A DNA stretch of 59,421 bases, counting the filler, from Jimgerdemannia flammicorona (taxonomy: Eukaryota), in assembly GCA_003990765.1 (NCBI GenBank). It is 3 parts of 3 records of this genome, joined end to end, with 100 filler letters (N's around TTAATTAATTAA, not from the genome) between each part and the next. Parts side by side here need not be neighbours in the genome. Positions count along the whole stretch, not along the records: positions 1 to 19,742 come from RBNJ01001861.1; 2 more parts are not named here. One strand, 5' to 3'. Positions 3,001 to 55,692 of the stretch are shown one piece after another. The notes beneath the pieces were generated by a model. That model was not told where the DNA came from, did no database searches, and saw nothing but the letters and a program-made list of their open reading frames with translations. A program made the translations under genes and the position numbers. Each line of letters begins with the position of its first letter. Position 1 is the stretch's first letter.

Positions 3001-3618
3001 TGCTGTCAGAATCCAGTCAATCCTTGTACCCAGGCCATTCATCCAATGTGTGAAGACCCTGGCATCACTCCACCTAGTTCTGCTCATGTCCCCTAAGGAG
3101 CTCAACATCTCCACCTCCTCCCATGCATCCAGACTGCCACTTCTACCCCCAGCACTCCTCCCTCCATCAGTTCTGTCCAGACGCTGATCCCAAACCATAT
3201 TAAAGTCCCCACCTAGAACATCGACCCCTTCCTCCAAGAGAATACCCTCCTCCAGCAGCCCCCTGATCCAAGCAATCCTCTCAGCCCTAACCGCAGGGCA
3301 GTAGCAAGAGCCCACCTTCACTGATTCCCACCCTGGTCAATGCCAATCTCCCCAGACCAAGCGATCACCCCAGCTCCTGATATCCCCCAAAACTCCTCTG
3401 CCCTTCCTCACCAGAATCGCTACCTTTCCAAACCAAGCAGTAGCCCCACCCCATTCCCTAGTCTACTCTACCTGATCATCCTCATCCTCACACCAAACAT
3501 CCTGTAGTAAAAAGAGATCAGCCTCCAATCCCTTGAGCCAAGTAAAAATGTTCTTATGCTGCCCAGAGCCCCTTAACCCATTCACATTCAAGGAGAAAAT
3601 GTTGGTTGTACTGTTCAT
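1..3618 (-). pseudogene. LINE-A ORF2 (AP endonuclease, reverse transcriptase, C-terminal Cys/His motif), broken by stops and frameshifts
   Basis: ORF-track pieces 3463-3663, 2734-3321, 2443-2718, 1228-2406, 886-1191 and 253-531 are collinear with ORF2 of LINE-C. The start is ATG-AAC-AGT at 3618. Confidence 0.9.
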
Positions 3619-3649
3619 AAGGAATACTGATATATGATTGTCCCATCCT

Positions 3650-5686
3650 CTACAAGTCCACATTCCGCTCCTCCTGCACCAAGTCTAAGTCACGTTCAGC
3701 AGCTAGTTCCCTCTCCCCAGCTTCCTGTGCCGCCAACTCTCCAAGGAGTTCTACCATAGCCTCATCTTCATGCTCCTCAAAGTCCTCCCGATACTCCAGA
3801 CAGATCTCCTGCCAGAGCCTCAGACCATGATGCTCTGCCCAACAGTATGTCGCCCGCTCCCCAGCAACCACCCCCAACTCCGCCTTCCTCACCTCATCAA
3901 CCTCATATCCCTCCTCCTCTAGGAAAATTGTCAGAATCTCCCCCTTCAGTGCCTCTACCATTCCATCACCATGCAGAACTCATGCCCAATGCTCCTCAGG
4001 TATTGCCTGCAGGTCCACTTCTCCCAACGCCTCTGCTGCAAGATTATCCATCACCTTATGCATCCACAACAAGTTCCCCACCTCCTTCCCTCCTGGAGTC
4101 CCTGGCCGCCCTGTATCCAACATCGTGGTATCAACTCCTACACTGGCAGCCTCATCCCACTCCTCCTCAGAGACATCCACCAGTTCGCCCTCACCAACTG
4201 CCACCACCTGACCCCCTTGTACCACATCAGGGATCCCAAAGCGCACCTGCTGGGCCCCCTGCATCCGCGTATCCTCCATCTTCCCTCTCTTCCCAACTGG
4301 GCCCCTCCTGATAAGTGGGGGGGGGGTGTCCTCCACCACCGGGTCCCACACTTCGAAGGTACCATCAGTGAATAGGCTCTTGTCCGGCATCTTCCCAGCC
4401 TCTGCCTTCTCTGCCTCCACCTCCTCCCCTCCTTTACCAGCCCAGACACTGGCCTTAACACCACCAGACTCCTCAGCTCCAACCACCTTCTTCTCCACTC
4501 CTCTGGTCATACTTGCCAACAGCTCCCTCTACCTCTTGCATCCCTGTGCCTGCTCCCACTGCTTCTTGTCTATATGGATATGCTTCCCACCCACCACCTC
4601 CAGGTGCGTCAACTCCTCATACAGTTTCCAGGCCCTTGCCCTCCTCTCCACAGCACCACCCAACTCCTCTAGCGCCTCCAACAAGTCCTCCTCCTCCTCT
4701 TCACTCCCTTTCACCCTCGACACCTTGCAGACAACAGCCCCCCACATCAGATTCGAAGGCCAGTCACTCGGTTTCCCTGTGGCCTCCTTGCCTGCCAGCT
4801 GAATCCTGTCATCGACATCCCCTGTCCTGATTGTGGTCCCCTCCCACACCTGGAAGCCTATATCTACCACATCACTGTACTCCACCATCACCTCCTCCAC
4901 CCTCTTCCTAGTCTCCTCCCTCATCACTGTGGGCACCCCCCTCACCAGCAGCTGTACCACCCTAGGGTCCCATCTCAGGCACCACACCATGGGAACTACC
5001 ACCTCTCCAACCATGACTCCAGTCTTCAGGGCCTCATCCAGCGGGCCCACCTCCTCAAAACCCACCTCCACCCCCTCCAAGCCCTTCAGGAACTTCACCG
5101 AGGCTGCCCCTTCCACCTGCTTCGAAATCAGCCCCAGAACCATCCTCGCTATCACTGCCAAGCCCCAGAAGCACAAGGTGACTGCAAACTCCGAAATCGA
5201 CTTCTTGAGCAACAGGGCCACCACCAGCCCTGTTACACTGTCCACTAGGTCCCTCTTCCACATCGGGAACCCCTGCCCCCCCTGGCCATCAGCTATCACA
5301 TCTCTTTTTTTTTCCTCCTGATCCACTGTCACGCCACCATCAGCAGTCCCACCACTACCCCCACCAGCTACTCCACTACCCCCCCCTCCCACTGACAAGG
5401 GCCCAGCTCCCTCAGCATTCCCAGCCTTCTTCTTCCCCTTCCCTCCTGTCTGTCCATCATGATCTCCCATCGGCCAGCCTCCTGTCCTCAGTGTGTCCGC
5501 GAAGCTCCTTCTCTGCTGCCCTCCAGCCCCCCCCCCAATGCTACTTCCACTACCCGAGCTGCCCTGTCCACCTGAGCCACCGAAAGACCCCATCCCCAGT
5601 CTATACCCTCTCCCGACATACTGCCAGTTGAAGGCCCCAGGTCCACCTGACCTAGTATGTGTATCGGCTTGCTTGCTAGTTGACAT
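3650..5686 (-). pseudogene. LINE-A ORF1 (Gly-rich N-terminus, RRM-like core, acidic helical C-terminus)
   Basis: Runs MSTSKQADTH... to ...ERNVDL* in three in-frame pieces and is near-identical to LINE-C ORF1 from EKKRDV onward. Confidence 0.85.
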
Positions 5687-5939
5687 TGCTTTAGTATCTT
5701 TCTCCAATAAACGACTTGAAAGTGTGTTGTAAAAGTGTGTGTAATGCGAATTGTGAGTGACGTGTGGAGTCTTTCCTTTGATATCCTTGAAATCTGTAAC
5801 TAGGACATTCTTGAATTTATAAAATATCTTCTTGAGTTCCTTCTTGAGTGAGAATTTATTTCTCATGATATAGCTATGCTTGTTCATAGATTCCTCCTTC
5901 TTGTGGTCCAGTTCAGTAATCATGGTAGTAGTGAATCCT

Positions 5940-6330
5940 CCTCTCTCTGTAGATCCAAATCCTTTCTTTCCTCTTTCTGTTTTCTCCAACTTCTTGACTT
6001 CTATGATTCTTGGCTGAAGAACTGGGAAGATCAACATCTGTGTCACTTCTTAATTGGAAATAGAATTGTAGGATTGTAATTCCTAGCAATAAGTAGTATT
6101 TCTCCAATATAATCTAAATTGATGACTCCTCCTTCAATTGTAATTTTACTCCTAGCCAGGCTGCTCCTTGTCTTGAGGATTCCAACATAGTCCTTTTGAA
6201 TAGTCATCTCTAGATCAGTTATCAGTAGGGTGTTTGTCTAGAGCTCTAGTACAGTTTTTTCTACTGTGGTAATATCTATTCCAGCTATATTCTCTGACTT
6301 GTATTCTGATAGAACTGCATCAGGATGAGT
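5940..6330 (-). pseudogene. dut: Gypsy-1 dUTPase domain (decayed)
   Basis: KTRSSLA, GGVINLDYIGEI and RGKKGFGST correspond to dUTPase motifs II, III and V. Confidence 0.85.
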
Positions 6331-9756: not shown

Positions 9757-10008
9757 TGAAATAGTGATCTCAGAACAATGACATTATCACATGAGATAGC
9801 CTTTCCTAATAAGCTACTAGATCAGAGCATAAGAAGATTATACAGCATGACTCAACCAGACTATAAGATGAGTAATGATGACCAATTGTGAGTTATTATA
9901 ACTACAAGACAGATATCTTGAGGAATATAAAAGAAGAATTAAGAAACTGCAGTAGTAGCAATCTAAACAAGGCTCACAGAAATAGTTCAAAAGACTTACT
10001 ATAAACAA

Positions 10009-10810
10009 ATGCCTGCTACTCACCAAACCTCAAGGACCAGGAACTACAAAAGTCCTTCAGTCCAGGAAAGATCAGAAGAGCCATGAGGACCTACACAAGA
10101 AGGACTCCTAGCCTCAACCTAGGTACTGGCGACCCTTATCATTATAACCTCTACTTCTATAAAATGGAAACAAGGATCACTATCACTACTGAATATCTCT
10201 AGATGTGGCAGGAATATGAAATAGGAAATCTCCTCTACCAGGAATTCTCTCAGGCTAGTTCCTAAGAAATACAAGATGCCACTCTCATAAATATATATAA
10301 AATAAGGATAGCTAAGAAGATTCATCTGGTCTTCAGATATGCTCTATAGTCAATCTCCATCTTGGAGTATATCAGAGTCTCAGACTTTAAGGAACTATCA
10401 GTCTGCTGTATAATTGCACTGGAAGTATTAGTGGCCACAGAAGTCCAATCCACCATCACCCTCAATAGTGATGAGGTAGAAGAGTTCTGAAATCCCATCC
10501 TCAAGAACAATTCTGATCAATTGCTATAAGGATTAATCTCAGTATTCTAAAGCCCCAGTATCCAGATTAGATCTCCCCAAGACTCCACATTTGTTCCTTA
10601 TTCTTTAGAAGAGAACCTCATAGATTGGAGAGCTCCAGATCTCCTTGATTTTCCCACTACTGAATGTAATGATATTATCAGCAATGATATAACATATACA
10701 AAATATGTAAAATGGATAAAATATTCACAAACCTCATTTTTTTTGAGGATATCCTGACCTCTAGCAGTGATGAAGATGAAGCCCCCATGGTTCTGAACAT
10801 TCTGCTCTAA
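10009..10810 (+). pseudogene. LTR-encoded accessory ORF, 5' LTR copy (decayed)
   Basis: ATG-CCT-GCT...NILL-TAA, homologous to 15324-16127. Confidence 0.7.
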
Positions 10811-11070
10811 GTTCTTGGTAACACCAAAATCTTCTGACATCCATTTTTTGTTTAACTGAATTCTACTAGCATTCTTTTTCTATAATACCTGAATCTTTGT
10901 ACACTCTTTTTCTATACCACCAAAATCTCCTAACATTCTGAACTTATGCAATCATTTGTACAGACACTTGAATTTGTACTTACAACTATAGTTTTCTGTA
11001 TTTCAGTATTTTATTTGGTTATTTGAATTTATATTTAGCTTTATAACTTAGCAATTATTGAATTATATTT

Positions 11071-11078
11071 TATATAAA
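11071..11078 (+). promoter_or_regulatory. TATA box of the Gypsy-2 LTR
   Basis: TATATAAA ~240 bp before the LTR end. The solo LTR has GTATAAATAC at the equivalent site (15111-15120, minus). Confidence 0.55.
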
Positions 11079-11314
11079 TATCTCTCTTCTTTCCTTTGAA
11101 ATATAGTTAGTTCCAATTTACTTATACTCAATTCTACACAAGCAATCTAAGAGATAACAAGATAGTTTAAAGATAAGAAGTTTGAGGACTATAAGATCTT
11201 AGGAAGGCACTCCAATAAGAACTTGCTTATAACAAACTTGTGGTTAGTCTAAGAGATATATCTTAGAGAGAAACTGATATATTTGAAGGACTCAGCAACC
11301 ACTATGTGATAACT

Positions 11315-11332
11315 TGGTACCCATTGGCTGGT
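11315..11332 (+). promoter_or_regulatory. Gypsy-2 primer-binding site
   Basis: TGGTACCCATTGGCTGG immediately after the LTR, conserved with the family I PBS. The cognate tRNA could not be identified by eye. Confidence 0.7.
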
Positions 11333-13479
11333 GATTCAAAATAAATCCCTCACTTTTAAGCTGAAAAACAAACAACTACCACAACAACTACTCTGACTAC
11401 AAGAGTCATCTCTGCAAGAATTCAAGATAATATAGAAATACATCCTCCTATATTCTATAGATATACTACTGAAGAGTCAATCCTGATCTTCATTGAAGAC
11501 TTTGAATAATTTGCTACTATATGAGCTCTTGCCATGGATGCACAATTGGCCCTTCTATCAGTCAGCCTCAGAGAACCTGCTAGAGACAAGTTTAATACAG
11601 TGACTATTGCTGATACTGGTGCAGCCAAACTTGCCAATATGAAGAACTTTCTCAGAACTACATACTATACTGAAGAGATCAAGCAAGCTCTCAAGGATCA
11701 ACTCAATACTATCTGCTATAGACTAAGTGAAGATCCCAACTTATTCTATACTCAAATCTGCCACCAAATTGTCTTGGCTGACTATGATGATGCCCTTAAG
11801 AAACAAATAGCTAATTCAACCTTCCTTAAAGGAGTTCACTCTGAAATTACTCTAGCAATCTGGTCTACCCCAGCTGCTCTGACCCTTGACCAGAAAGTGG
11901 TCTTTGCACAGAGATATTAGACTGTTAGACACTCTACTGAACACTCAATAGAGAAAATAACTGGCATCAAGATGGAGCCACAAAAGCCAGCCAGTATAAT
12001 ACCCACTATAGTCATCAATAGACAACTATCTCTCACCTACTCCCAAGGCAGCCAAAGCTGATCCAGTAGAGGAACTCACCAAGCAGTTTGTGGAGATGAC
12101 TGTATACCTTAGTAATATTATTAGAGAAGTCCAAAACACCAACAAGAGATCAGTACAGAGATTTGTAGTTACTATAGAAGAATGCAATATCACATACTTC
12201 AGATATGGAGAAGAAGGCCACTATACAAAGAGTTGTATGACCAAAACAAGATATAAAGCCCAACTAAGTAATGCTACTAGAACCAGAGAACAAACCAATT
12301 CAGTAGTCATTGAGGAGATTGGTAATACTGATGATGAAGAATACTACAAGGAGTCTGAATTCTACTCTATTACTGAAGGTACCAGAATCTGGTCCAAGCC
12401 CTATGAAAGAAGAGTAACAGCAAGCCAGTTGGAAGACCAAAGAAGACTCCAGCTGTTACTATTTAAAGCAAGACTCAATCTAAGAAGATTGATCAAGATA
12501 TAGAGTTAGATAAAGCTGTCTACCAAATTATTGAAGGCACTACTTCAGTCTCAGAAGAAAGCAAAAGCAAGAAAGAACAGAAGCTATGTAAGATCAAGAT
12601 CCACCAGTATGATATCTATAAGGACCTTAAGGAACAGAAGGTCAATACTACTTTTGGACAACTAGCTGAAGTCTCTGCCTTTAAATAGTAGTTTAGAGTA
12701 GGACTTGCAAACACTATCAAGAACCAAGAGTACAAGATCATAGAAGCTCACAATGTATAAGAAGATGAACAAGAAGACACAGATAAAAAATCTGAAGACT
12801 AGCACAAGATATCAGCCTATACCTCATATTAGATTAAAGATTGTATCTTTGATGCCATCATTGATACTAGTGCTAGAGGATACCTCATAAGCAAGAAGAC
12901 AATTGACCACCTAGGCTGGGATATTGAAGAGTCTACCAAAATAGTCTATATTATAGTAGATGATATATGAGCTACTATCCCAGTAGATATGATTATTATA
13001 AGCACTACCAACTATGATATCCTTATTAACAATCAATGGTTTCATAAGGCCAAGGCTGTCATTGACCTCAATGTCTAGAAGATGTAGATCAACTATAGAG
13101 GAAGAAAGGTATGGGTCTCTATCAATATCCACAAAGGAGTACTACTAGATATGGAGAAGGAGATGAAGAAGACACAGAAGTCTTCATACACTTAGTATAC
13201 AAGAACAAGAGCAAGACACCTAAGCTCACAGATGAGTAGTGGTACAACAAGATCATAAATGGCTATATATATCTCTCAAGGAAGTTGCCCTCATGGTACT
13301 AGGATGTACTGCTCTGAACATCTGAATAACTACTGGTTCTATATCAGTAAAGTCAGAAAAATCCATCAACAAAAGTATGAGCAAGAAGCTGTTGAAGCAA
13401 AAAAGAAAGCCAAAAAAGATGATCAGCCCCCAGAGCTTCAAGCTGATAGTAATGATGAGGAGGAACAAGAACCAGACAA

Positions 13480-13890
13480 TACTCCCAAGATTAAGAAGTT
13501 TTACCCTGAAGTCAAGATCTCAGAATATAAGACTGAAGGAGCTATAGAAATAGACCTTGCCAGCATTCAAGATGCTATCTTTGAACCACAGACCACCACT
13601 CTACTTGGCACTGGAATTGGAGTTAAGTTACCAGAAAACTATCAAGACCAGGAGCAGTCTGACCAAAAGTGAAATCTCAGTTAAAGGAGGAGTAATTGAC
13701 CCTGATTATACTGGCAAGATCTTCCTTATAGTCAGGAATCACAACTCTACCACCCTATTTAGAGTCAAGAAGTATGATAGGATTGGCTAGATGCTGATCC
13801 ATGAAGTCAAGAAGCCCAAGATCACTGAAGCCATTGAACTTATCAAGATTAAGAGAGAAGAACAAGGCTTTGGATCTACTGGAAGAGGAG
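13480..13890 (+). pseudogene. dut: Gypsy-2 dUTPase domain between protease and RT
   Basis: GAIEIDL, KTRSSL, GGVIDPDYTGKI, DRIG*M and REEQGFGSTG match trimeric dUTPase motifs I-V. Confidence 0.9.
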
Positions 13891-14881
13891 CCTATACTGC
13901 TATCAAGATTACTGAACTTGAGTACAAGAAAGACAAGAACCAGAATAAGTATACATATATTATTAGAGAAAACTTTCCTCTACAAAAACAACTTCTCAAG
14001 ATCTTGCACCAAAATGAAGAAGTACTTGCTACAGACTTCAGGGATATCCACAATCAAGAACCCAAGTACTATCATAAAGTTTGCCACTGACAATACCAAG
14101 CCCATCTATCAGAAAGCTAGATCCAAACTACCTGCCTACAGAGAATGGCTGTGGGCAGAACTCAAGAAAATGAAAGAAGCTGGAATCATCAAGCAAGCTA
14201 TCAGCCCCTGGGCTTCACTTATTATCCTCACTCTAAAGAAAGAAGGCAAGCCTGGAGAGTTTACCCCAAAACTCTATATTTATTACAGAAAGCTCAATGC
14301 AATTACCAAGAAGGATAGGCAGCTCTTACCAAATATTTAAGAAATTCTTACTACTCTTAGAAGTGAAGCCAAATACTACACTATGTTGGATCTGTTCTCA
14401 GGCTTCTATTAGATTGGTCTCACTCAAGATACTAGTGAGAAATCAGTCTTTATTACACCTGATGCTACATATGTCTATCTGTGAATATTATTTGAAATAT
14501 ATATACCCCAGTAAGTTTTCAGTGAATAATAAATAGAGACTTCAGTAATGAGATTGGAAAATGGCTCTTTGTCTATATTGATGATGTGATCATCTTCAGC
14601 AACACTATATGGGAATATATCAACTATATACAGCTGGCTCTCAAGAAGCTAAAGTAGCATGGCCTCTATATCAAGCCCAAGAAGTATAAGTTTATAGCTC
14701 AGGAAATCACCTACCTAGGACATATCATCAACCAGAGTGAAATTCACACAGACTCTATGAAGATTGAGGCTGTTATAGCCTATCTAAGATCCAGAACAAC
14801 TATAGAAGTCTATGTCTTCCTTAGACTGGCCTCCTACTATAGAAGATTCATCAAAGGATACTCTAACATTATAGTACCTAT

Positions 14882-16369
14882 TGTTACATAGTGGTCACTG
14901 AGTCCTTCAAATATACCAGATTCTCTTTAAGGTGTATCTCTTAGACTAACTTAAGTTTGTTATAAGCAAGTTCTTATTGGAGTGCCTTCCCAAGATCTTA
15001 TAGTCCTCAAACTTCTTATCTTTAACTGTCTTATTATCTCTTAGATTGCTTGCAAGGAAGTGTGTATAAATGAAACCAGAACTGACTTTATTTCAGAGGA
15101 AATAAGAGGGGTATTTATACAAAATATAATTCAATAGTTGCTAAGATATAAAGCTAAATATAAATTCCAATAACTAAAACTACTAAGTTCCAGGGTTGGC
15201 ACTGATGGTTGTACAGATTCAGGATGTTGGTATAATTCAGTATCACATCAGAATACCTGTGCTGGAATAATTTTGCATCACCTCAGAATGCCAGTGCTGG
15301 TATTATTCAGTGTAATAAAGAACTTAGAGCAGAAAGTTCAGGATCATGGGGGCTTCATCCTCATCATCAGAAGTCAGGATGTCTTTGAAGGAGATGAGGT
15401 CTGTGAATTCATCATTTTTGTATATTTCGATGTCACATAGGATACTGTCATCGCCGATGACATCATCACATTCAGTAGAGAAATTGGGGGCTCTCCAATC
15501 TATGAGGTTCTCTTCCACAAAATAAGGAACAAATGTGGGGTCTTGGGGAGGTCTAACCTGGATGCTTGGGCCTTGGAATACTGAGATCAATCCTTGCAGG
15601 AATTGGTCTGGGTTGTCCTGAAAGATGGGATGCCAGAAGTCTTTTACTTCATCACTATTGAGGGTGATAGTGGACTGGGCTTCTGTAACCACCCTGGCTT
15701 CTAGTGCATTGATATGGCAGGATGACAGGTCTCTGAAGTCTGAGACTCTAACATACTCCAAGTTGGGGATTGACCATGGTGTATGCCTGAAGATCTGATG
15801 GATCTTCTTAGCTGTTCTTGTCTCAAATATATCCTTGGGAGTGGCATCTTGTAGCTCTTGAGGGCTAGCCTGTGGGAACTCCTGGCAGAGGAGGTTTGCT
15901 ATTTCATACTCCTGCTATATTTGGAGGTATTCAGTAGCAATAGTAATCCTTGTTTCCATTTCACAGCAGTAGAGGATAAAGTGATAGGGATCTGCAGTAC
16001 CCAGGTTAACACTAGGAGTCCTTCTTGAGTGGGTTCTCATGGCTCTTCTGATGTCTTGGAACATCCTTTCCTTGACTGAGATACCTTGGTAATTCCTTAA
16101 CCTTGAGGTTTGGCAGGCAGCAGGCATTTTATTTGTGGTAAGTCTTTGAGCTATTTTGGGATTGGTGGTTCTTGTTGGTTACTGCTACTGCAGTTCCTTG
16201 ATCCTTCTTTTATATTCTTCAGGATGCTTATACTGTGGTCACAATGACTCACAGTTGGTCATCATTACTCATCTCATATGTTGTATGATCTCCTTGTGCT
16301 CCAATCTGGTGGCTTGTGAGGAAAGGCTGTCTCTTGTGCTGATGTCATCATTCTGAGGTCACCGTTATA
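14882..16369 (-). mobile_element. Solo LTR (1488 bp) of a Gypsy-2-related subfamily, inserted antisense at the RT/RNase H junction of Gypsy-2, with 4-bp TSD CTAT
   Basis: Termini TGTTACA...GTTATA (decayed TG...CA), with CTAT at 14878-14881 and 16370-16373. Host pol (NIVAPIYKLLKK) resumes on the right. Confidence 0.9.
15324..16127 (-). pseudogene. LTR-encoded accessory ORF of unknown function, best-preserved copy (267 codons, one internal TAG)
   Basis: ORF-track pieces 15915-16127 and 15324-15761 are in the same frame, and the intervening codons are open (QEYEIANLLCQEFPQASPQELQDATPKDIFETRTAKKIHQIFRHTPWSIPN). The single stop is TGG in both other copies. Confidence 0.8.
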
Positions 16370-18470
16370 CTATCTATAAGCTACTGAACTACAACATTGT
16401 AGCACCTATCTATAAGCTACTGAAGAAGGAGACTAAATTCAAATAGACCAAAAAACATCAAGAAACCTTCAATGAACTCAAGATCAGATTGACCCAAGCA
16501 CCAATCCTCAGAAGACCAGATTGGAATCTAGAGTTCATCTTACAGACAGATATAACTACTATAGGACTTAGAGTAGTCCTAGCTTAGAAGAAAGATAGAT
16601 ATAAATATATTATCTCCTATATAAGCCAAGGTAATCATGAAGTAGAACAGAACTACTAGTCATGTAAGCTTGAATGTTAAGCAGTAGTTTGGGCAGTAGA
16701 CAAATTCTACTACTACCTAGCTAAAAAATACTTCACTATTCAAACAGACCATTCTGCTCTTGCCTAACTATTCTACACTCTGAACTCCAAAGAAATATAT
16801 GCTAGATGGAATTACAGACTATAAAAGTATGACTGTACTATCAAGTACCACTCAGGAAGAACTAATACCAATGCTGATATACTCTCAAGTACACCCCAAA
16901 ATACCCTCATCAAGACTATTCAACATGAATAAGGAGCTATACTATATATTAATCAGCTATCTTAGGCAGCAGAAGATGCCCAACTATCTTGAACTCTGGA
17001 CTATTACCATTATCAATCAGACTTGGAAACAATTTAAACTAGTCAATACTATACTCAGAAAAGAAGGAAAGCTCATAATACCTGAATATAAGAAGTATTA
17101 AGTAATGAAGGAAGTATATGAATAAGGATAGCTAGGAGGAACCAACATATATAACAAAGCAAAAAGAACCATGTTGTGGCCTAAGATGGAAGAAAACCTA
17201 CACCAATATGTTAAAGAGTATAATAAGTGTCAAAACCAGAAATAAGATCAATAAGATCAGGCATCTGGGTCATCAAAAATTGAGCCTATTTCCTTCCACC
17301 ACATTGTAATAAATATCATTAGACCACTACCAGTAACAGTATCGAGAAACTGCTATATTATAGTTATCATAGACCTCTTTACTAAATAAATAGAAGCAGG
17401 AGTATTACAAGAAGCCAATACTCTCTCTATAGCCAACTTTCTGTACTGAGAAATCATCTGTCACTACAAGACACTAAGGCAAATCACCACAGACTACAGC
17501 ACAGAATATTTCAATGGATTCTACAAGATAATATATTAGAAATACAAGATTTAGCATATCAAAAGCACTACATACCACTCTTAAGAAAATGAACAGACAG
17601 AAAGAACCAACAAGACCCTCAAGAATATCCTAGTGAAGATCTCAGATATATAACAATTGGGATAACTACCTCCCAACTATCCTCTCTATCCTACAAGATA
17701 TATAGTCACAGAGTATACACTTTACCTCAAGAGAACTGCTCTTTGGAGAAGAAGATTCTAATGGAACCTCAGCTACAAATCTAGATCTAACTTAGAGATA
17801 GATTGACTCAGAAATCTGGAGACTACACCAAATCAGGAAGAAAGCTGAAGATTACATTATTAAGTCATAAGCACTGATAAGGAAGAATGCAGAAAGAATC
17901 ACAAGACCCTAAAACCCATCCAAATCAGAGAAAAGGTTCTACTGTATCAAAATATGGTAGAAGTCTCATGGTTATGAAAACTGGATCCCAAATAGGAAGG
18001 ATCCTTCTATATATAAGATATCAAGAGAACTATCTTCTGTCTTAGAAAACTCTCAGAGACCATACTGCTTACTTTGATATATAGAAACAGACTCAAGAAG
18101 TACCATGAACCTATACAAGAGAAGTAAAACATAATGACTACCCATAAGGTTCTAGTTTACAAATCATAACAGTATGTCCTATAACTAGTAGGCACTCTGT
18201 CTGGACTATTTTTTAAGTGATATGGTATTAACAACTACTTATTTGTAAGACTTTTGAAGCCAGAGAAGTTCAAACCATCAACTAATTGATCAAGATCAGA
18301 ATCAGGCCCTTGTTCTATATAAAGAGAGTAATTCTTAACTATTATGCCAAAATATATAAAGAAAATACCAGCTCATAAATACCACTTTTCAACTCCCTAC
18401 CAGAGGTTATGGGATCAGCAAATTTTCAGACTGAATCAATAAATAAGGACATTCAAGAGAAGATCTTTAT

Positions 18471-18482
18471 TTAGGAGGAAGA
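18471..18482 (+). promoter_or_regulatory. Polypurine tract of Gypsy-2
   Basis: TTAGGAGGAAGA directly before TGTAATAG, the start of the 3' LTR. Confidence 0.75.
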
Positions 18483-19742
18483 TGTAATAGTAATCTTAGA
18501 ATGATAACATCATTATAGGAGACAGTCTTTCCTTATAAGCCACCAGATCAGAGTAAAAGAAGATCATATAGCATGACTCACCTAGGCTATAAGATGAGCA
18601 ATGATGACTAATTATATGTCATCATGACTACAAGATAGATATCTTAAGGAATATAAAAGAAGGATCAAGAAACCACAGTAGCAGCAATCCAAATAAGGTT
18701 TACAGAAATAGTTCAAATGACTTATTATAAATAAATGTCTGCTACTCATCTAACCTCAAGGTCTAGAAACCACCAAGGTCTCTCAGTCTAGAAAAGGATA
18801 TTCTAAGACATCAGAAGAGCTATAAGGACCTACTTCTAGTCTCAACCTGGGTACTGGTGACCCTTATCATTATATTCTCTATTGCTGTGAAATGGAAACA
18901 AGAATTACTATCACTACTGAATACCTCTGGATATGGCAGAAAAACGAAATAGAAAATATCCTCTACTGGGAATTCCCTCAGGCCAGTCCCCAAGAAATAT
19001 AAGATACCACTTCCATAGATGTATATAAAATAAGGACAGCTAAGAAGATTCATCATGTCTTTAGACATACATCATAATCAATCTCCAACTTGGAGTACAT
19101 CAGAGTCTCAGACTTTAAGAAACTGTTAGCTCACTATACAAATGTACTGGAGGCTATGGTGGCCACAGAAATCCAATCCACCATCACCCTCAATAGTGAT
19201 AAAGTAGGTGAGTTCTGGAATTCCATCCTTGAGAACAATTCTGATCAATTTCTGCAAGGATTGATCATTTCAAGGCCCCAGCATTCAGGTTAGACCTCTC
19301 CAAGACTCTATATTTGTTCTTTATTTTGTAGAAGAGAATGAGAGCTCTGGATCTTCTTGCTTTCTCTACTACTGAACATGATGATACATATCATTAGTAA
19401 TGATGTCATTAGTGATGATATCATCTTATATGATATATGCAAAACATGTAAAATGAATAAAACATTCACAGATCTCATTTCCTTCAAGGATATCCTGACC
19501 TCTGGCAGTAATGAAGATGAAGTCTTCATGGTTCTGAACATTTTGCTCTAAGTTCTTATTAACACTAAAATCTTCTGGTATCCTTTTTCTATATAACTGA
19601 ATTCTACTAGTATCTTTTTTCTATAATATCTGAATCTTTGGACATCTTTCCTATACCACTGAAACCTACTAATATTCTTAACTTGTATAACTATTTGTAC
19701 AGATACTTGAATTTGTACTTATAATAATAGTTTTTTTTTTTT
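18483..19742 (+). repeat. Gypsy-2 3' LTR (truncated), including a decayed accessory-ORF copy at 18735-19551
   Basis: Aligns with the 5' LTR. ORF pieces 19090-19293 and 19357-19551 match the solo-LTR ORF. Confidence 0.88.
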
Positions 19743-19842
19743 NNNNNNNNNNNNNNNNNNNNNNNNNNNNNNNNNNNNNNNNNNNNTTAATTAATTAANN
19801 NNNNNNNNNNNNNNNNNNNNNNNNNNNNNNNNNNNNNNNNNN
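19743..19842. other. Artificial contig linker (N44-TTAATTAATTAA-N44)
   Basis: Exactly 100 bp with a six-frame stop spacer, identical to 39584-39683. Confidence 0.98.
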
Positions 19843-22800
19843 TACTTGGACTGCCCTTTATTACCAAAGTCTATAATGTATACAATACAATGACACCCCT
19901 GTCCTCAACCAATGCCTCGGGGGCCCAAGCCCTCTCTCTCATCCTCCCCCTGCCCGAGCACCACCCAATTACCCACTACCCAAACCCTCCCACCACTCTT
20001 CTGGGTGATATGCCGACCAGACCCCTGCGGAACCCCCCACCCATCCCCCAACCCCGCCACCAACTATTCAAAATATCCAACATCAACCATTCCCACCTAG
20101 CCATCTTGTCACCAACTCTGACCTGTCACCCTTCCTCAAAGACATAAACCCAGTGCCCTGCCAGCCCCACCTACATAGCCAAAGCCCAACTAAGTGTCAG
20201 CCACTCGTCCCTAACTCCACCCACCAGACACCAGCGGAGCTCTCCCCACCTCCCCCCTTCCTCTCCCACCCTGGCCCCCAGCTCAACCCTGTCCTTAATA
20301 CCTCTCCAAAACTCCCCCAAGACCTCGCATTCACCAAGCCAATGTTCAGGCATTTGTATCACTCCTCCCTCCTGACCAACATTGAAGCAATCCTCGCACT
20401 CGAATATCCCACCATCCACCAAGTGTCCTGATCGATAGTTCAACATCACATTCCACCATAGGACCCACCACCACACTACCCAGAACTTGGGGGGCAGCCA
20501 CTGCTGCACCCATTTGCTCCAAAGCCAGAGTCCATTCCAATCCCACTCCTCCCCAATTCCAACCCTCTGCCAGGCTTCTGGCTACAGGTCCCTGCCGAGG
20601 CCCTACAGACACTCCAGACCTTTGCCAAGCTGAAAGTCCTCCACCAGGACCCCACCCAATAGAAGCCTGTCCCACTGCCACATCCGTGGTCCCCAATCCT
20701 CCTCGGCTTCCTCACCTCGCCACTGAAGTTCAATCTTCTTAGTACCATCCACCACCCCCTACCAAAAGCCTGTAAATCACATCTTCCTGCTCCCTTCCAT
20801 AGCCACCATCGCAAGTAGATCTCCAGAGCCACCATGTGGGGAGTACTGAACCTCCCACAACCTCTGCATGAGGGGCACCCACTCCCACCCCCTGAGCTCA
20901 CTCGCCCTCCGCAGCCACCAGGCTCTCAGACATAGAAGTCGCTTAGTAAAGTCCACTAAGCCCAGCCCACCTCTTTCCAGGGGCAGTGTGAGTACCTCCC
21001 AACCAACCTGGCTTCGCTGTCCTCCTCAGATCCACGACCTCACCATCTTCAACAACTCCTTAACCACCCAGGTAGGAAAATTCAGATGATATCCAACATA
21101 CCACAGCTTCGGTATCTAGTACACATTCAACACCATCACCCTTCCGGCAAGGGACATATGCCGGCCTCTCCATCTCAGCAAAACATTACCCCACTCCAGA
21201 AGTTTACAGTCCCACTATGCTCGGGGAAGAAGAGATCTGAACACTGAGAAGTAAATCCCCAAGTAGTGCACTGGTTCACCTGCCAGCACCACCATCTCAA
21301 TAACCTTGCCACCAACAATTCCGGTGCCCAACACCAGCATCTCGCATTTGTGCCAGTTAAGTTTAGCACTAGAACCCTGCTCATACCATTCCACAGTCCT
21401 CTGTAACTCTCCCACATCTCCCAAGGAGCCCAGCCCAACCACCATATCATCAGCAAAGGCCCCCACCTTCCAGTTTACCCCTAAAACATCCAAGTCTCCA
21501 ATCTTATGCCGAATCCTGTCCAGTAGTGGCTCCAGGGAAAGAGTATACAATATGGGTGACAAAGGGTCCCCTTGTGGAACCCTGCATCCCAGGAGAAAGG
21601 TCACCCCCTGGTGGTCATTGATGACCAATGCTACCTGACTGTCCTCCAAGAGGCTGATTAATGCTCTTTGGACCCCTGGCGGAATGCCAATCTGCTTCAG
21701 CACTCCTTCCAGCCATAATCTCCACACTCTATCATAAGCCTTCTCTTGGTCCAGAAACACTAATCTGCCATCCACCTCTGTAGCCTGAGCACCTTCAATC
21801 ACTTTATAAACCCAGGCCGTCCCATCTCGAATCAACCGACCACCAACAAACCCACATTGCTCCACACCAAGAACCTGCTGGGTGATGCCCTGCAACCTCA
21901 TCACCAAGATTTTCATCACCAATTTGTGGTCTATATCAAGAAGCATAATCAGCCGCCAGTTCTTCCAGTCCTCACACCTCCCCTTGTCCTTAAAGAGCAA
22001 AGAGACCAGCCCTAAGTGCTGTCCCCCAATCCAGGCACCAGACCGAAGAACTCTATCACACATAGCAGTCATTTCCTCTAGTACCATACCCACCCCAGCC
22101 ATCTTCTGCCAAAAATCCCAGGGAAGTCCATTCTCTCCCAGAGCTGTCCCCTTACTCGTTAAGGCCACAACCCTGCAAATCTCCTCACCACTCACCAGGT
22201 CCCCTAATACTCCAAGTCCTATCACAGGTTCTGGGTGCCAATCCCCCAGCTGTCTTTCAATGTTCAGGGCATCCAATCTCCCATCCTCCTCACTTCAAAG
22301 ATTCCCCCACTGGGTTCGCAGTAGGTCCAGAATTGCCAGCATCCCCACTACCAGCTTGCCATTCTCATCCAAAACTCCCTCCCACTGCTGCCTCATATGT
22401 CATACTTGTAACAACTGTGACAAGAATCTGGTAGGCCTCTCCCCCTCCTCAAGTCCCTGCCACCACAGGCAGGCCACCATTCCCTGCAACTGCTCCTCCT
22501 CCTCCTTGCATAGTACCCCTTTGAGCTCCTCCACCTCCTGCCATATTCTCGCAATATGCCAATCAGTCACAGCCCCATCCTCCAGCACACCTGCCCATCT
22601 TTTTATGAGTGCTGCTAGACGCCGCAAGGCCTACAGCACCCGCCACCTTTGCTGGGCACACTTTCCTTTCCCTGCCTCCCTCCAATACTCCTGAGCCTTT
22701 ACCTTTAGCCTTCTCCAGTAGTCCCCAATTTCCAGTCCTAGTTCCCACCACCTGCCTATATTTCCAACCACCTCTGATTCCCATCTCTCCCACAATACCC

Positions 22801-25591
22801 TATCCTCCAATAGGGAAGAATTCAGTTACCAATGTCCAGGCCCATCCTCATTTCCCCCAAACCTCCCCCCTCTGAGCAGCCCTCAGTGATCAGACCATGG
22901 ACACCATATGACTTCCAGTACTGACCAGATATCTGTCCCCCAACACTCCACCATTAGAACCCAGTCAATTCTAGATCCCAGTCCTGCCACCCAGTGGGTG
23001 TACATCCGCCAATTAGCCCAAAAAAGTCTTCCTGAGTCTACTAGAGAACACAACCTCTCCATCTCCAACCAGTCACCCAATCCACCACTTTCACCCTGCA
23101 TGCCTCTCCCTCCATCAGTTCTGTCCAACTCCTTATCCCATACCATGTTGAAGTCACCCCCCATACAGTCTAACCCAACTTCTCCCAACACACCAGCCTC
23201 CTTCAATCCTCGGATCCATTCCACCCTCTCCCCTCTCTCAGCTGGGCAGTAACAGGACCCGACCATCAGCGGGCCCCATCCAGGCCTCTTCCACACTCCC
23301 CACACCACTCAAGACCCCCAATGTCCAATGTTCCCAATGTCCCCCATCCCTTTCCGAATGAGAATACACACTTTCCCCCTCCAAACTGCCATGCTCCCCC
23401 ATTCCCTAGTCTAATTCTGCAAGTCCACATCTACCTCATACTGAACATCCTGTAACAAGAAGAGGTCCGCATCCAGTCCCTTAAGCCATCCAAATATATA
23501 CTTCCTCCTAGCTGCTCCCCACAATCCATTAACGTTCAGTGAGAATATCCTAGTTGTACTGTTCATATTGGAATAATGTTGTAAAAGAGACCCAGCCTAG
23601 AATTCCATGCTCATCCCATCCCCAGCCAGATCTAAGTGCCATTCAGCTTCCAAGTCCCCCTCTGCAATATCCTATTCCTCCAGTGCCCCCAAGAGTTCCT
23701 GGCAATCCGCCCTGTCCACCTCCTCTATATCTGCCCTATAGTCCAAGCAAACAGCATGCCACTTCTCCAGTCCCTTCCTCAAATTCCACAAGAACAATGC
23801 TCTGTCGCTCGCAATCCTCCTAAGTTCCTCCTCCCACTGATCATCAACCTGATACTCCAACAACTCTAGGAGGACTGCCAGGATCTCATTCCTCATCTTT
23901 CTCGGCACCTCCTCCCCCCTAAGGATCTCCTCCCAGTGTCTTTCTTCCATCACCCTGAAATCCTCACCCCCCAACTCTTCAGCCGCAACCCCTTCCAGAG
24001 TCTTCTACATCCACTTCTTCTTATCTACTGCCTCTGCTGCACCCCGGGCAATTTGTCCCCCATCCACCTCAGGGTCCACCAGCACACTCCTCCTTACAGA
24101 CTCATCCCACTCCTCATCCGGCACATCCAGCAACTCCTCCTCTCTCTCACCTCCAACCGGGACACTATATGTAGGGTGCACACCCTCGCCCATTTTGGCA
24201 TCTGCCTCCAAGTTGCCCACTCTCTCTTCCCCTACTCCAATCTGAGCTGCACTCTATACCAATCCTCCCCCTTTAGCCCAGGTGCTCTCTCTCAACCCTG
24301 CACCTCTCTCCCCTGAGCTACCACTAGCCCTACCCATATCCAACGTCACCAGCAGCTCCTTCTGGATACACCTACCCTGCAACTTCTCCCAGGCTCCTTT
24401 TTCCATCCGGACTCTCTTCTCCTCGACCTCCCCCACTACTGTTCTGGTCTCAAACTCCTTCCAGGCCAATTTCCTCCTTGCCACTGCTCCTTCCAGATCC
24501 TCCAAGGCCTCCAATAGGTCCTCCTCCTCCTCTGGGGTCCCCTTCACCCTCATGACCTTGCACTCCACAGGTCCCCACCTCAGCACTGCTGACCAGTCCC
24601 TCGGCTTCCCTGTATTCTCCTTTCCAGCCAGCCGCACCCTGACATTGACATCACCAGTCCTTAGCTCCATGCCCTCTCAGACCTTGAACCCAACATCTAC
24701 AATCTCGCCATACTCCTTGATCACCTCTACAACCAATTCCCTGGTCCTCTCCTTCGACATGGTAGGGAGGTCCAACACCATCAACTGTACCACTCGGGGG
24801 TCCCAGTACATGCACCAGGCCATAGGGACCACAACTCTGCCAACTGTCACCCCCTTCTCCATGGCTGCCAACAAGGCATCTTCCTCCTCAAACCCTACCT
24901 CAATCCCTTCTTTTTCCCTCAGAAACTTCACTGACGCAGCCCCCTTAGCCTCCTGCACCACAAGCCCCAAGATCATCCTCGCTGTCACTACCAAGCCCCG
25001 GAAGTACATCGTGACTGCAAATTCTGACCATGATTTCTTGAGTAATGGGCCAACACCATCCATCACACCATCCGCCAGGTCCCCAGGCCTCGTGCCCACT
25101 CCTCGACCCAAATCTCTAATTGCCATCACATCTGGATTTTTTGCCAGATCCTCAGTCATAACCTCATCAGCAGTCACATCTCCAGCCCCTACTCCCGCTC
25201 CTCCCCTGTCACCAGAGACACCCCTGGGTACACCTCCCAGGCCCCCAGCAGCCGCCATCGACACCTTCCCCAAGCCCAGCCAACCATCCAAGCCTGAGGC
25301 CATCTTCCTTATCCTGACCTTATCAGTAAAGGTCGACCTCTCCCCACCTTGTTGTCTCAGCCTGCCTCTCCCTCCACCGCTGGGACCCTGGCTAGCCATC
25401 GAGGCACCCGGCATCCCCAAACCATCTCCCCTCCTCCCCACCTGCTGCCAGTCAAAGGCACCAGTACTCCCCTGGCCAGTATGCTCACCATTTTGATCAT
25501 TGCCATCCATGTTGAAAGTCGCTGAACACCAAAAACATTGTGAAAAGTATTGTCGAAGTCTTGTGTCACCTGAATGTTACCGGTGAAAGGT
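19843..25591 (-). mobile_element. LINE-B: essentially full-length L1/Tx1-like LINE of a second subfamily (ORF1 25510-23597, ORF2 23566 to ~19845), decayed
   Basis: APE, RT and Cys/His motifs as in LINE-A. The 3' end AATAAAGGGCAGTCCAAGT lies at the contig edge, and the 5' UTR matches LINE-C up to ACCTTTCACC. Confidence 0.93.
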
Positions 25592-39583: not shown

Positions 39584-39683
39584 NNNNNNNNNNNNNNNNN
39601 NNNNNNNNNNNNNNNNNNNNNNNNNNNTTAATTAATTAANNNNNNNNNNNNNNNNNNNNNNNNNNNNNNNNNNNNNNNNNNNN
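39584..39683. other. Artificial contig linker (N44-TTAATTAATTAA-N44)
   Basis: Same 100-bp spacer as 19743-19842. Confidence 0.98.
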
Positions 39684-52900: not shown

Positions 52901-53623
52901 TTCTTTCAAGAGAGAGGTTTAGGAGGGCTGCAATTCCTTTAATTCCATTAAAGAATTCTCTTGAGTCTTCTTCTGGATATCCTGTAAAGATTGATAATGA
53001 AGTGACCATTTCATTATTACTGTCTTCTTATTCTAGTTCTGGTTTCAGTACTGATACTGCCTCTGATTCTGATTCTGATTTACTTTCTGAATTATTACTA
53101 AAGTTTGGGGTACTTGGGTATCCTGAAAATGAGGTTATAGATCTTAGACAAGATGCAATAGATCTGGGTATTCATGAAGTAGCTATTTCTTAGTCTTCTT
53201 GTCCTGTGATAACTGGTGAAAGAGATTCAATAAGCAAAGTTAGTGGGTCTCCTATAGGAAGTCAGGCTTGTGTAATGAGATCTTCTAGTTCTTTGTATAA
53301 TCTAGTTGATCTAGAGAAAGTCTGTTAGTATTGACTGTGGATTTTGTGCTGTGCTGGCTTTCTGTTGACATCCTTCCAATACTGGATAGTTGGTATGTCT
53401 TGAAGTAATGACTTCTCTTCCAGTTCCAATACTGGTAATAACTACTTCTCTAGTAGTGGCAGAGATTGGTATTGTATCAAATATATCCAGTTTGACTGTA
53501 GGTTCTTATGAGCTGAAAGGTTACATAGATTTTGAAATCTTCACCTTTCACCAGTAACATTCAGGTGACACAAGACTCAGACAATACTTTCAACAATGTT
53601 TTTGGTGAATGGCGACTAGCAAC

Positions 53624-55662: not shown

Positions 55663-55692
55663 AGAATGGGATCACTTTTAACATTATTCCTT

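Follow-up and report, generated by a model that had tools for sequence, protein, structure and literature searches.

Can the LTR of a Ty3/gypsy element hold a complete gene, and how would such a gene be expressed? Retrotransposon LTRs are normally regarded as non-coding control regions, and genes that lie wholly within an LTR are, to our knowledge, textbook matter for a few vertebrate retroviruses only. The question is raised by a ~1.5-kb repeat in a window of 59,421 nucleotides from Jimgerdemannia flammicorona, which consists of three chunks of ~19.74 kb, artificially joined. An earlier interpretation made without database searches (hereafter the sequence-only reading) had described three copies of this repeat as LTRs that contain the same ATG-to-TAA frame. 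All three copies were found (Table 1), and we analysed their borders, the coding character of the frame, the signals around it and the predicted protein.

The repeat and its borders

Two of the copies bound a degraded Ty3/gypsy element that spans from 9757 to at least 19742, the third copy of the repeat ending at 19742 because of the N/TTAATTAATTAA linker. The LTRs are direct repeats with the termini TGTAA...GTAACA, i.e. a TG start and a CA end, and the primer-binding site (PBS) that adjoins the end of the 5' LTR reads TGGTACCCATTGG. Pfam matches in pol come in the order dUTPase, RVT_1, RT_RNaseH_2, Integrase_H2C2 and rve, which fits a pol of the order PR-dUTPase-RT-RNaseH-integrase, the Ty3/gypsy order plus an extra dUTPase before the RT; no Pfam match for a protease was obtained in the degraded pol frames. 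A dUTPase between protease and RT is shared with PosPlaTy3-5, a dUTPase-bearing fungal Ty3/gypsy element of Postia placenta, for which the passages on this element describe no LTR-borne gene (PMC2864245). Bdelloid elements can contain a dUTPase too (PMC5408684).

The remaining copy is a solo LTR, inserted in the opposite orientation to the host element and to both its LTRs and flanked by a 4-bp target duplication (CTAT at 14878-14881 and 16370-16373). Soil-metagenome contigs document both of its borders. At the 14882 end, they join the LTR to a PBS-like sequence, TGGTGCCCATTGG... (loose ends at 14881), which is the same sequence as the PBS of the host element, and at the 16369 end, they join it to AGGAGGATG, which resembles a polypurine tract (PPT; loose ends at 16367). 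Moreover, the empty pol site is bridged by two metagenome contigs, from 14863 to 16392 and from 14870 to 16408. With a PPT before it, a PBS after it, a 4-bp target duplication and pol domains, the repeat qualifies as a genuine LTR of the Ty3/gypsy (Metaviridae) type. The contigs, which join the two LTR ends to PBS and PPT and reveal the empty site, place the entire ORF inside the LTR, as the sequence-only reading had assumed. In the window's subfamily, the whole ORF is found between the LTR ends and is not an internal-region ORF of the aORF or ORF3 kind. This residence is directly shown for the window's subfamily only; for the metagenome locus L001, it is indicated by colinear motifs. In the metagenomes, depth was higher over the LTR than over the pol flanks, a depth that is the sum over contigs and neither a measure of copy number nor a sign that solo LTRs are in excess.

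The other metagenome locus, L002, appears to be organized differently. Its stop codon is immediately followed by GGAGGGAGGAT-TGTAATAAG, which resembles the PPT and LTR start (TGTAATA) of the family, and the gene may lie just outside the LTR in this subfamily. As the L002 subfamily seems to keep the gene there, a shift of the polypurine tract may be what brought the gene into the LTR.

Table 1. Features of the host element and of the solo LTR, in positions of the whole window
Feature	Position	Strand	Remarks
5' LTR of the older host element	9757..11312	+	ORF copy is a pseudogene, ATG 10009 to TAA about 10809
Primer-binding site TGGTACCCATTGGCTGG	11315..11331	+	Read directly after the 5' LTR
Degraded gag-pol, split by the solo LTR	11534..18472	+	Frames read through, X at stops
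gag with CCHC knuckle	about 11534-12503	+	CCHC motif read in ORF 12012-12503
dUTPase	13605-13883	+	Pfam E 2.4e-13
RT	about 14514-14729	+	RVT_1 E 8.5e-10
Solo LTR, 1488 bp, younger subfamily	14882..16369	-	In host pol at the RT/RNase H junction
AATAAA poly(A) signal	15087..15092	-	LTR position 1278; 27 nt past TATA-2 start
TATA-2 TATAAATA, candidate genomic-RNA promoter	15112..15119	-	LTR positions 1251-1258; downstream of ORF
Tandem repeat, 35 bp x2.4, enhancer-like position	15228..15310	-	Between ORF stop and TATA-2
LTR-borne ORF, 267 codons + TAA	15324..16127	-	LTR positions 243-1046; one TAG at 15915-15917
TATA-1 TATAAAAG, candidate ORF promoter	16207..16214	-	About LTR position 156; 87 nt upstream of ATG
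RNase H	about 16447-16830	+	RT_RNaseH_2 E 1.5e-23
Integrase	about 17081-17578	+	Integrase_H2C2 E 1.8e-6; rve E 0.0027
Polypurine tract AGGAGGAAGA	18473..18482	+	Read directly before the 3' LTR
3' LTR of the host element, truncated at the chunk linker	18483..19742	+	ORF copy (ATG 18735) is a pseudogene

The ORF and its relatives

The notion of one frame common to all copies holds for the solo LTR, with its 267 codons, but not for the flanking copies, which are pseudogenes. The copy in the 5' LTR is 80% identical to the solo ORF and is interrupted by 6 stops and by 8 indels, of which 3 shift the frame (13, 1 and 2 nt), and that in the 3' LTR is 78% identical, with 4 stops and 11 indels (8 frameshifting). 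As had been read, a single TAG breaks the solo ORF; it is located at codon 71, which is TGG in both flanking LTR copies and encodes W in the homologues. The sequence-only reading had mentioned neither the minus strand of the solo ORF nor the better conserved TATA box upstream of it. All three window copies are dead, and intact members are found in soil metagenomes. No further family copies beyond the three LTRs were detected in the window by tblastn with five family members as queries. L002 has a weak DNA match at 51.7 kb, which does not belong to the family.

Database searches gave five matches among 1.84 billion representative proteins and 11 in a collection of 5.8 billion clusters, each of the latter on a short metagenome contig. 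The intact metagenome ORFs, of 271-342 aa, represent about five subfamilies and are 27-81% identical to either the window ORF or P0001; such database ORFs are a biased sample, as gene callers output open frames only. Six ORFs are intact and full-length (P0001, 271 aa; P0009 and P0011, 323 aa each; the L002 ORF, 291 aa; P0019, 342 aa; P0021, 325 aa), and all six begin with MP(A/P). P0019 is encoded on a 4.8-kb contig. A scan of metagenome loci yielded L001 and L002, and no family members were found in the viral contigs scanned. A search for longer or fused forms of the protein returned none, which is weak evidence. At the DNA level, blastn aligned the solo LTR and L002 over a single 29-nt block, around the start codon. 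Among the 12 listed of 32 metagenome indels, none falls in the ORF. One run (X11) shows two in-frame deletions, of 120 and 189 nt, and a third joint of low depth that skips 82 nt, not a multiple of three.

DNA of intact or near-intact ORFs was compared for three copies, namely the solo LTR, L001 and L002. The pairwise pN/pS values of 0.283/0.683, 0.434/0.715 and 0.394/0.732 correspond to JC dN/dS ratios of 0.20, 0.28 and 0.20, with dS saturated and with protein-guided codon alignments, which bias toward the ORF frame. The solo ORF thus has a dN/dS of 0.20-0.28 relative to L001 and L002, and the overall value of about 0.2-0.3 speaks for purifying selection. In the control frames, pN/pS was 0.89-1.24, about 1 in four of the five, and it was 0.55-0.71 in the antisense frame that shares third positions. 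Substitutions by codon position in the three pairs ([88,71,133], [131,102,156] and [124,101,164]) show a third-position excess, and the ORF frame has 0-1 stops compared with 14-39 in the other frames. The constraint is stronger on the core of the protein (pN/pS 0.34-0.54) than on its tail (0.69-0.92). Judged by these substitution patterns, the ORF is a genuine gene whose protein is maintained by purifying selection and conserved over about five subfamilies.

Candidate transcription signals and possible modes of expression

TATA-like motifs are frequent in AT-rich DNA, and the solo LTR has one on each side of the ORF. The upstream motif, TATA-1, is invariant in all five aligned copies, which belong to three subfamilies, and lies 65-87 nt upstream of the ATG in non-coding DNA that is otherwise barely alignable across subfamilies. 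Between it and the ATG, directly before the latter, is a conserved block, GACTYAYYAYAAA. The downstream motif, TATA-2, confirms the position of the ORF upstream of a TATA box that the sequence-only reading had reported. The subfamily-specific repeats after the ORF are also present as described, the host 3' LTR having a different one (32 bp x2.2, 19564-19635) at the same relative place as that of the solo LTR. TGTATAAATACCCCTC is common to the solo LTR and L001, which is from another subfamily, and its 5' LTR version is mutated; similarly, TATAAATACCCCTC and a downstream AATAAA are common to subfamilies A and B. The AATAAA is found in the solo LTR and L001; the decayed 5' LTR has AATATA instead. 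L002 has no apparent TATA-2. No motif was found in common between the sequences ahead of the two TATA boxes of the solo LTR, the window copies have no AG acceptor at a conserved place before the ATG, and none of the RNA runs on record is listed with the LTR sequence. In L002, one 33-nt motif flanks the ORF on both sides, which we treat as an anecdote.

We consider it probable that the ORF is an LTR-resident accessory gene with a putative promoter of its own, which uses the poly(A) signal of the LTR. The conserved motifs suggest that the LTR could be a self-contained transcription unit. Transcription from TATA-1 would produce an mRNA of ~1.1 kb that carries the ORF (243-1046) and ends at the AATAAA of the LTR (1278), and TATA-2 (1251), with the tandem repeats ahead of it, would direct the start of the genomic RNA. 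The ORF would then belong to U3, each retrotransposition would place a copy of it in both LTRs, and the 5' LTR, the 3' LTR and solo LTRs could each express the protein. What would place the ORF in U3 is solely the downstream pair of TATAAATA and AATAAA, and a second TATA precedes the ORF. Since TATAAAAG is conserved upstream of the ORF, a promoter in every LTR is favoured over expression from the 3' LTR only.

TATA-1 might instead be the sole promoter of the LTR. The genomic RNA would then start upstream of the ORF, R-U5 would measure about 1.3 kb, and the ORF would be the first cistron before gag, with no gene in U3. There is a parallel in Ty1, whose Gag starts inside the 5' LTR; TATA-1 is the best conserved non-coding motif (5/5 copies), and its downstream counterpart is not evident in L002. 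However, the TATAAATA-27 nt-AATAAA pair, which is conserved between subfamilies A and B, and the tandem repeats just upstream of it resemble a classical U3/R border, the genomic RNA would have to bypass a poly(A) signal 1.1 kb in, and gag would require reinitiation past a 267-codon ORF, so that we give this arrangement perhaps one chance in a handful. Somewhat less probable still is an accessory ORF in env position that is expressed from a spliced subgenomic RNA and is in the LTR merely because the PPT lies upstream of it, in which case LTRs alone, including solo LTRs, would be silent for the ORF. Expression from spliced messages is typical of the ORF3 genes of LTR retrotransposons (PMC5408684), and the succession of stop codon, PPT-like tract and TGTAATA in L002 suggests that the gene can sit immediately on either side of the LTR border, depending on the subfamily. 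Nevertheless, TATAAAAG is conserved at a fixed distance ahead of the ATG in three subfamilies, and the window copies show no AG acceptor at a conserved place before the ATG.

Two other explanations deny the ORF a role in the element or its existence as a gene. Gene capture by retroelements is known, for instance in crocodilian ERVs (PMC4299795), and the LTR could have picked up a host gene or a fragment thereof as a passenger with no function in the life cycle of the element. We find this quite improbable, given the handful of matches in very large protein collections and their location on short metagenome contigs, the failure to find a longer or fused form, the LTR-type TATA-1 block of both L001 and L002 (with TATA-2 as well in L001), and the purifying selection across subfamilies that have diverged to 27-55% identity. 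It is even harder to believe that there is no gene and that the frame is open by chance or conserved as regulatory DNA only. The three window copies are all broken and no RNA run on record is listed with the sequence, but at these base compositions a frame of 291-323 codons would be open by chance with a probability of about 1e-8 to 1e-6, six full-length ORFs are intact, and the third-position excess of substitutions is accompanied by control frames without constraint.

The protein and its possible role

By the sequence searches performed, the protein belongs to no described protein family. The window ORF has no Pfam family at E<=10, and 15 members have none that is relevant at E<=5, a match to ATG5_HBR (3 of the 15, best E 0.028) having been discarded. 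A sequence profile search of the PDB gave 0 matches, and Foldseek gave 0 at E<=0.001 against the PDB and viral models, with query models of low confidence. VIA-align against 48,161 chains reached a best Z of 4.3, under the stated noise level for helical models, and the best match in the ESM Atlas scored 0.83, with a model of its own at pLDDT 0.35. The possibility that the ORF is a gag or pol fragment, raised along with the sequence-only reading, is not borne out: alignment of the family profile with the gag pieces of the element by hhalign gave probabilities of 0.05 and 0.06, and there are no matches to gag or pol Pfam families.

The helical core and acidic tail predicted earlier agree with the residue composition and with AlphaFold models, albeit of low confidence. 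The N-terminus is basic, with a net charge of +1 to +8 over the first 40 residues. It is combined with a helical core of ~170 residues and with a tail of 55-126 residues that has a net charge of -14 to -27 and contains 16-33 bulky hydrophobic residues. The pI is 4.5-4.9, and a transmembrane segment is absent (maximum KD19 1.07). For two distant members, AlphaFold predicted the same helix order and a beta-hairpin, with a tail of low confidence after them, both models being poor (pLDDT 53.6 and 50.3). RNA export factors of the Rev/Rex/CERV kind combine an arginine-rich RNA-binding motif with a leucine-rich export signal. Two of the seven full-length sequences scanned have a tight basic cluster, RRAMR.R, and NES-like patterns are present at positions that are not conserved.

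Acidic activation domains typically have a tail of this kind, in which negative charge is combined with many bulky hydrophobic residues. From its composition alone, we tentatively suggest that the protein might be a trans-acting regulator of the element. Its most likely role would be that of a transcriptional transactivator or an anti-silencing factor acting on the LTR, and an adaptor for RNA export or packaging is the alternative. A more speculative proposal, which we regard as possible but doubtful, is that the LTR is an autonomous cassette made of promoter, ORF and poly(A) signal, so that every LTR, including solo LTRs, would be a working gene for a trans-acting factor. That factor would combine a basic N-terminus, a novel helical core and a tail of the acidic activation type, and would represent a new kind of retroelement regulator that switches on or protects the LTRs of its family.

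How does this compare with known systems? In MMTV, a betaretrovirus of vertebrates, the 'LTR ORF' in U3 is sag, which encodes a type II membrane glycoprotein. Like sag, the window ORF is a complete gene inside an LTR that would precede the promoter of the genomic RNA and enter both LTRs in each cycle, provided that its deduced position in U3 is correct. Unlike Sag, the protein of the window family is acidic and has neither a hydrophobic segment nor a Pfam family, and the element is a Ty3/gypsy element without env. Tas (bel1) of foamy viruses, a protein of ~300 aa whose acidic activation domain is C-terminal, has its own internal promoter and acts on the LTR, and lentiviral nef overlaps the PPT/U3. 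Both tas/bel1 and nef are 3'-terminal regulatory genes near or in U3, as the window ORF would be, and Tas is the closest functional analogy to our reading. However, tas is located mostly upstream of the LTR, whereas the window ORF is wholly downstream of the PPT, and no similarity was found in sequence or in modelled fold.

Additional ORFs of LTR retrotransposons have also been reported elsewhere. The aORFs of plant elements are presented as units of their own next to gag and pol, and the wording 'in/within/inside the LTR' does not occur in the review that deals with them (PMC7264820). The ORF3s of bdelloid rotifers are separate from gag/pol and expressed from spliced messages (PMC5408684), and CERV is an additional ORF of Cer1 in C. 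elegans (PMC10309623). The aORF/ORF3 systems share with the window ORF the status of an extra, element-family-specific gene of unknown or regulatory role in gypsy-type elements. Unlike them, the window ORF is found inside the LTR, with a candidate TATA of its own.

What is new here is that a gypsy LTR contains a conserved gene, that its product represents a new protein family and that the gene has motifs of its own that resemble a promoter and a terminator. If these motifs work, gene dosage would scale with the number of LTRs, and solo LTRs would be more than inert scars. In the manner of complex retroviruses, the element family could exert control over itself in trans. It also offers a testable case of the movement of an accessory gene across the PPT/U3 border. 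Pipelines that mask LTRs would hide such a protein family, which may explain why it is represented only by unnamed ORFs from metagenomes.

Cytosine methylation targeted to transposons is known from fungi and plants. The observed/expected CpG ratio is 0.01-0.07 in the gypsy element, 0.24 in a LINE and 1.08 in a BTB-SPRY gene, whose atlas neighbours are divided among Nematoda, Haptophyta and Mucoromycota. CpG depletion is thus restricted to transposons in the window, and the BTB-SPRY gene, in chunk 2, is spared.

The LTR and the frame within it

Chunk 1, the first of the three parts of the window, contains an old, heavily mutated LTR retrotransposon. Its pol frames, translated with X in place of stops before Pfam domain matching, yielded in order a dUTPase, RVT_1 (E 8.5e-10), RT_RNaseH_2 (1.5e-23), Integrase_H2C2 (1.8e-6) and rve (0.0027). 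This is the domain order of Ty3/gypsy elements, except that protease and RT are separated by an additional dUTPase. A dUTPase in this position is described for basidiomycete gypsy elements (PMC2864245) and likewise for bdelloid-rotifer elements (PMC5408684). As the chunks are joined artificially, sequences that meet at a linker are not adjacent in the genome.

Features of the window
Feature	Position	Strand	Detail
5' LTR of host element	9757-11312	+	
Primer-binding site (PBS)	two bases past 5' LTR end	+	TGGTACCCATTGGCTGG
gag of host element		+	CCHC knuckle present
dUTPase domain	13605-13883	+	Pfam E 2.4e-13
Solo LTR	14882-16369	-	
ORF in solo LTR	16127..15324	-	267 codons + TAA; single TAG at codon 71
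Pol target duplicated in tandem, ~36 bp	16370-16441	+	...CTATCTATAAGCTACTGAAC TAC AACATTGTAGCACCTATCTATAAGCTACTGAAG
Polypurine tract (PPT)	18473-18482	+	AGGAGGAAGA, directly before 3' LTR
3' LTR of host element	from 18483, cut off by linker at 19742	+	
Linkers	19743-19842; 39584-39683		N44-TTAATTAATTAA-N44, between chunks of 19742, 19741 and 19738 bp
Non-LTR retrotransposon copies	1-6050; 20000-25600	-	
Non-LTR retrotransposon copy	28000-28600		
Non-LTR retrotransposon copy	53500-59000	+	
BTB + SPRY frame	37095-38465	-	intact, 456 codons

A third copy of the repeat, in the opposite orientation to the host element, splits pol between RT and RNase H. It is flanked on either side by CTAT and is only 73-75% identical to the host-element LTRs over most of its length (88% in the last 300 bp). 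The copy is therefore a solo LTR that belongs to a younger subfamily and is nested within the older element. Contigs of four public runs (2120, 489, 209 and 52 contigs; three runs labelled soil metagenome or 'organism A', one 'organism B') were aligned to 14600-16700 at no less than 80% likeness. Those departing at 14881 run into CCAATGGGCACCAAG, the reverse complement of which is the PBS after the window's 5' LTR, and for those departing at 16367 the reverse complement of the continuation includes AGGAGGATG, resembling the PPT before the 3' LTR. Two contigs bridge 14863 to 16392 and 14870 to 16408, which is the empty pol site. Both LTR ends are thus confirmed by independent copies, and the ORF, which occupies LTR positions 243-1046 of 1488, falls entirely between them, as the sequence-only reading had it.

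The empty-site contigs skip 1528 bp, i.e. the LTR, the TSD and 36 bp, so that the tandem duplication of pol beside the solo LTR is private to the window copy. Contigs of run X11, labelled 'organism B', carry two in-frame ORF deletions (120 and 189 nt) and, in the downstream repeat region, an insertion of 22 nt; a third joint skips 82 nt, out of frame. These contigs show that another labelled organism has related variants of the LTR.

Selection on the ORF and decay of its window copies

In 5.8 billion protein clusters, a word-indexed search returned six matches to the window ORF and 11 to a 15-sequence profile; among 1.84 billion representative proteins, HMMER run exhaustively gave five. All homologues are unnamed or 'hypothetical' ORFs, and the metagenome contigs that carry them measure 0.6-4.8 kb. 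Six of these ORFs are intact and full-length, each starting MP(A/P), and these natural sequences were used in place of a consensus or repaired ORF. Among the homologues, P0001 (271 aa) and the ORF of metagenome locus L002 (291 aa) share 73% and 43% identity with the window ORF, P0019 (342 aa) and P0021 (325 aa) share 37% and 33% with P0001, and P0009 and P0011 have 323 aa each.

Selection was measured on the three copies with DNA, namely the solo LTR and loci L001 and L002, in a protein-guided codon alignment; database ORFs are selected to be open. Pairwise Nei-Gojobori pN/pS values were 0.283/0.683, 0.434/0.715 and 0.394/0.732, and the Jukes-Cantor-corrected dN/dS ratios 0.20, 0.28 and 0.20 with dS saturated, far from the value of about 1 that would have spoken against the earlier proposal of a gene. 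When the same nucleotide alignments were shifted to five other frames, pN/pS was 0.89-1.24, except in the antisense frame with common third positions (0.55-0.71), and 14-39 stop codons appeared, versus 0-1 in the ORF frame. Constraint is tighter in the core (first 216 columns, pN/pS 0.34-0.54) than in the tail (0.69-0.92). An open frame of 291-323 codons would arise by chance at these compositions with a probability of 1e-6 to 1e-9. The ORF is located in the LTR and its protein is under selection; we have high confidence that it is a protein-coding gene which selection has kept across about five subfamilies.

None of the three window copies is functional. The lone TAG reported for the solo ORF is indeed its only premature stop; both other copies have TGG and the homologues W at this codon. 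The claim that all three copies share one frame holds as homology only, since the 5' LTR copy (80% identity to the solo ORF) is broken by six stops and eight indels and the 3' LTR copy (78%) by four stops and 11 indels. Transitions dominate the substitutions (116/157 and 132/173, respectively), and CpG observed/expected is 0.01-0.07 in the gypsy element and 0.24 in the non-LTR retrotransposon (LINE), as against 1.08 in the chunk-2 BTB-SPRY gene. The window copies have therefore decayed by transposon-targeted deamination. The solo ORF has cysteines where homologues have arginine (YCCE vs YRRE), changes that fit the same process.

Candidate transcription signals and possible modes of expression

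The 5' parts of five copies (solo LTR, 5' LTR, 3' LTR, L001 and L002) were aligned. In all five, TATAAAAG (TATA-1) is unchanged, 65-87 nt upstream of the ATG, and a conserved block, GACTYAYYAYAAA, immediately precedes the start codon; with blastn, the solo LTR and L002 could be aligned over no more than a block of 29 nt around this codon. Downstream of the stop codon come tandem repeats, subfamily-specific as first described, and past them TGTATAAATACCCCTC (TATA-2), with AATAAA 27 nt from the TATA start; the earlier placement of the ORF upstream of a TATA box thus stands. This pair occurs in both the window's subfamily and L001. It resembles a typical U3/R boundary in which R is short, and would put the ORF in U3, as originally proposed. 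TATA-1, absent from that proposal, points to a promoter belonging to the ORF itself, with the LTR's poly(A) signal ending the transcript. In that case the LTR would make up a whole transcription unit, from TATA-1 through the ORF to the poly(A) signal, and the protein could be made from solo LTRs. On these motifs, we consider it moderately probable that the ORF has a promoter of its own, shares the poly(A) signal and lies in U3.

A leader ORF within a very long R-U5 seems unlikely to us. We give still less credit to a spliced 3' ORF devoid of its own promoter, given the invariant TATA-1; spliced messages are typical of the extra ORFs of bdelloid-rotifer LTR retrotransposons, which are separate units (PMC5408684). 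For a frame conserved across subfamilies, a captured passenger gene appears very improbable, and the pN/pS ratios and stop counts make it hardly credible that there is no gene.

In L002, GGAGGGAGGAT-TGTAATAAG (1249-1275) directly follows the ORF stop codon and resembles the PPT and LTR start of the family, AGGAGGAAGA-TGTAATAG; TATA-2 is not evident within the following 287 nt of this short contig. In the L002 subfamily, the gene may stop right at the PPT and lie outside the LTR, in which case the PPT/LTR border would have moved across the gene during the history of the family. L002 also has a 33-nt motif (GTCAGGCGGAAC..TCAGAACA.AAG) at 170-202, ~95 nt upstream of TATA-1, and at 1481-1513, downstream of the ORF, with 82% identity between the two. 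The motif may serve as a common regulatory site; nothing corresponding to it turned up in the window's solo LTR.

Among retroviruses, MMTV carries the whole sag gene within U3, nef of lentiviruses overlaps this region, and the tas gene of foamy viruses is driven by an internal promoter of its own and encodes an acidic activation domain. The ORF represents an accessory gene that its LTR retroelement carries at a location known only from a few retroviruses. We found no description of a gene residing in the LTR of an LTR retrotransposon in the open-access literature, where coverage was limited and absence is not proof. A review of plant aORFs has no phrase placing an ORF in, within or inside the LTR (PMC7264820).

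The encoded protein and other elements of the window

The protein family has not been described previously. The window ORF matched no Pfam family at E<=10, a PDB sequence search gave zero matches, and hhalign probabilities to the element's own gag were only 0.05 and 0.06, which contradicts its being a gag/pol fragment. ATG5_HBR, the sole Pfam match among 15 members at E<=5 (3/15, best E 0.028), was discarded. A search for longer or fused forms came up empty, which is weak evidence.

AlphaFold2 models of two distant members, from alignments of 15 and 17 sequences, were poor (pLDDT 53.6 and 50.3). In both, a short helix comes first, then one of 37 residues, several more as far as about residue 150, a further helix, a beta-hairpin and a low-confidence tail, in agreement with the helical core first noticed. 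With these poor models as queries, Foldseek returned nothing at E<=0.001 against PDB or viral models, and the top Z of VIA-align over 48,161 chains was 4.3, under the tool's stated noise level for helical models. The first 40 residues have a net charge of +1 to +8. Past a conserved I-x-W-R/E motif, the tail comprises 55-126 residues, of which 16-33 are bulky and hydrophobic, and with a net charge of -14 to -27 it is acidic, as first noticed; its length differs through in-frame indels, and a conserved (V/I/T)LNF motif forms its end. The pI is 4.5-4.9, and transmembrane segments are absent (maximum KD19 1.07). From this composition, the protein might tentatively be a regulator that acts on the family's LTRs, with the acidic-hydrophobic tail as its activation domain; alternatively, it could be an adaptor for RNA export or packaging.

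The non-LTR retrotransposon is GC-rich (51-55%) and strongly C/G-skewed, with endonuclease (Exo_endo_phos, E 2.4e-5) and RT (RVT_1, E 1e-27) domains. The BTB-SPRY gene (Pfam E 7e-7 and 7e-8) has paralogous fragments close by, at 33.5-36.2 kb, and its closest Atlas clusters are divided among Nematoda, Haptophyta and Mucoromycota.
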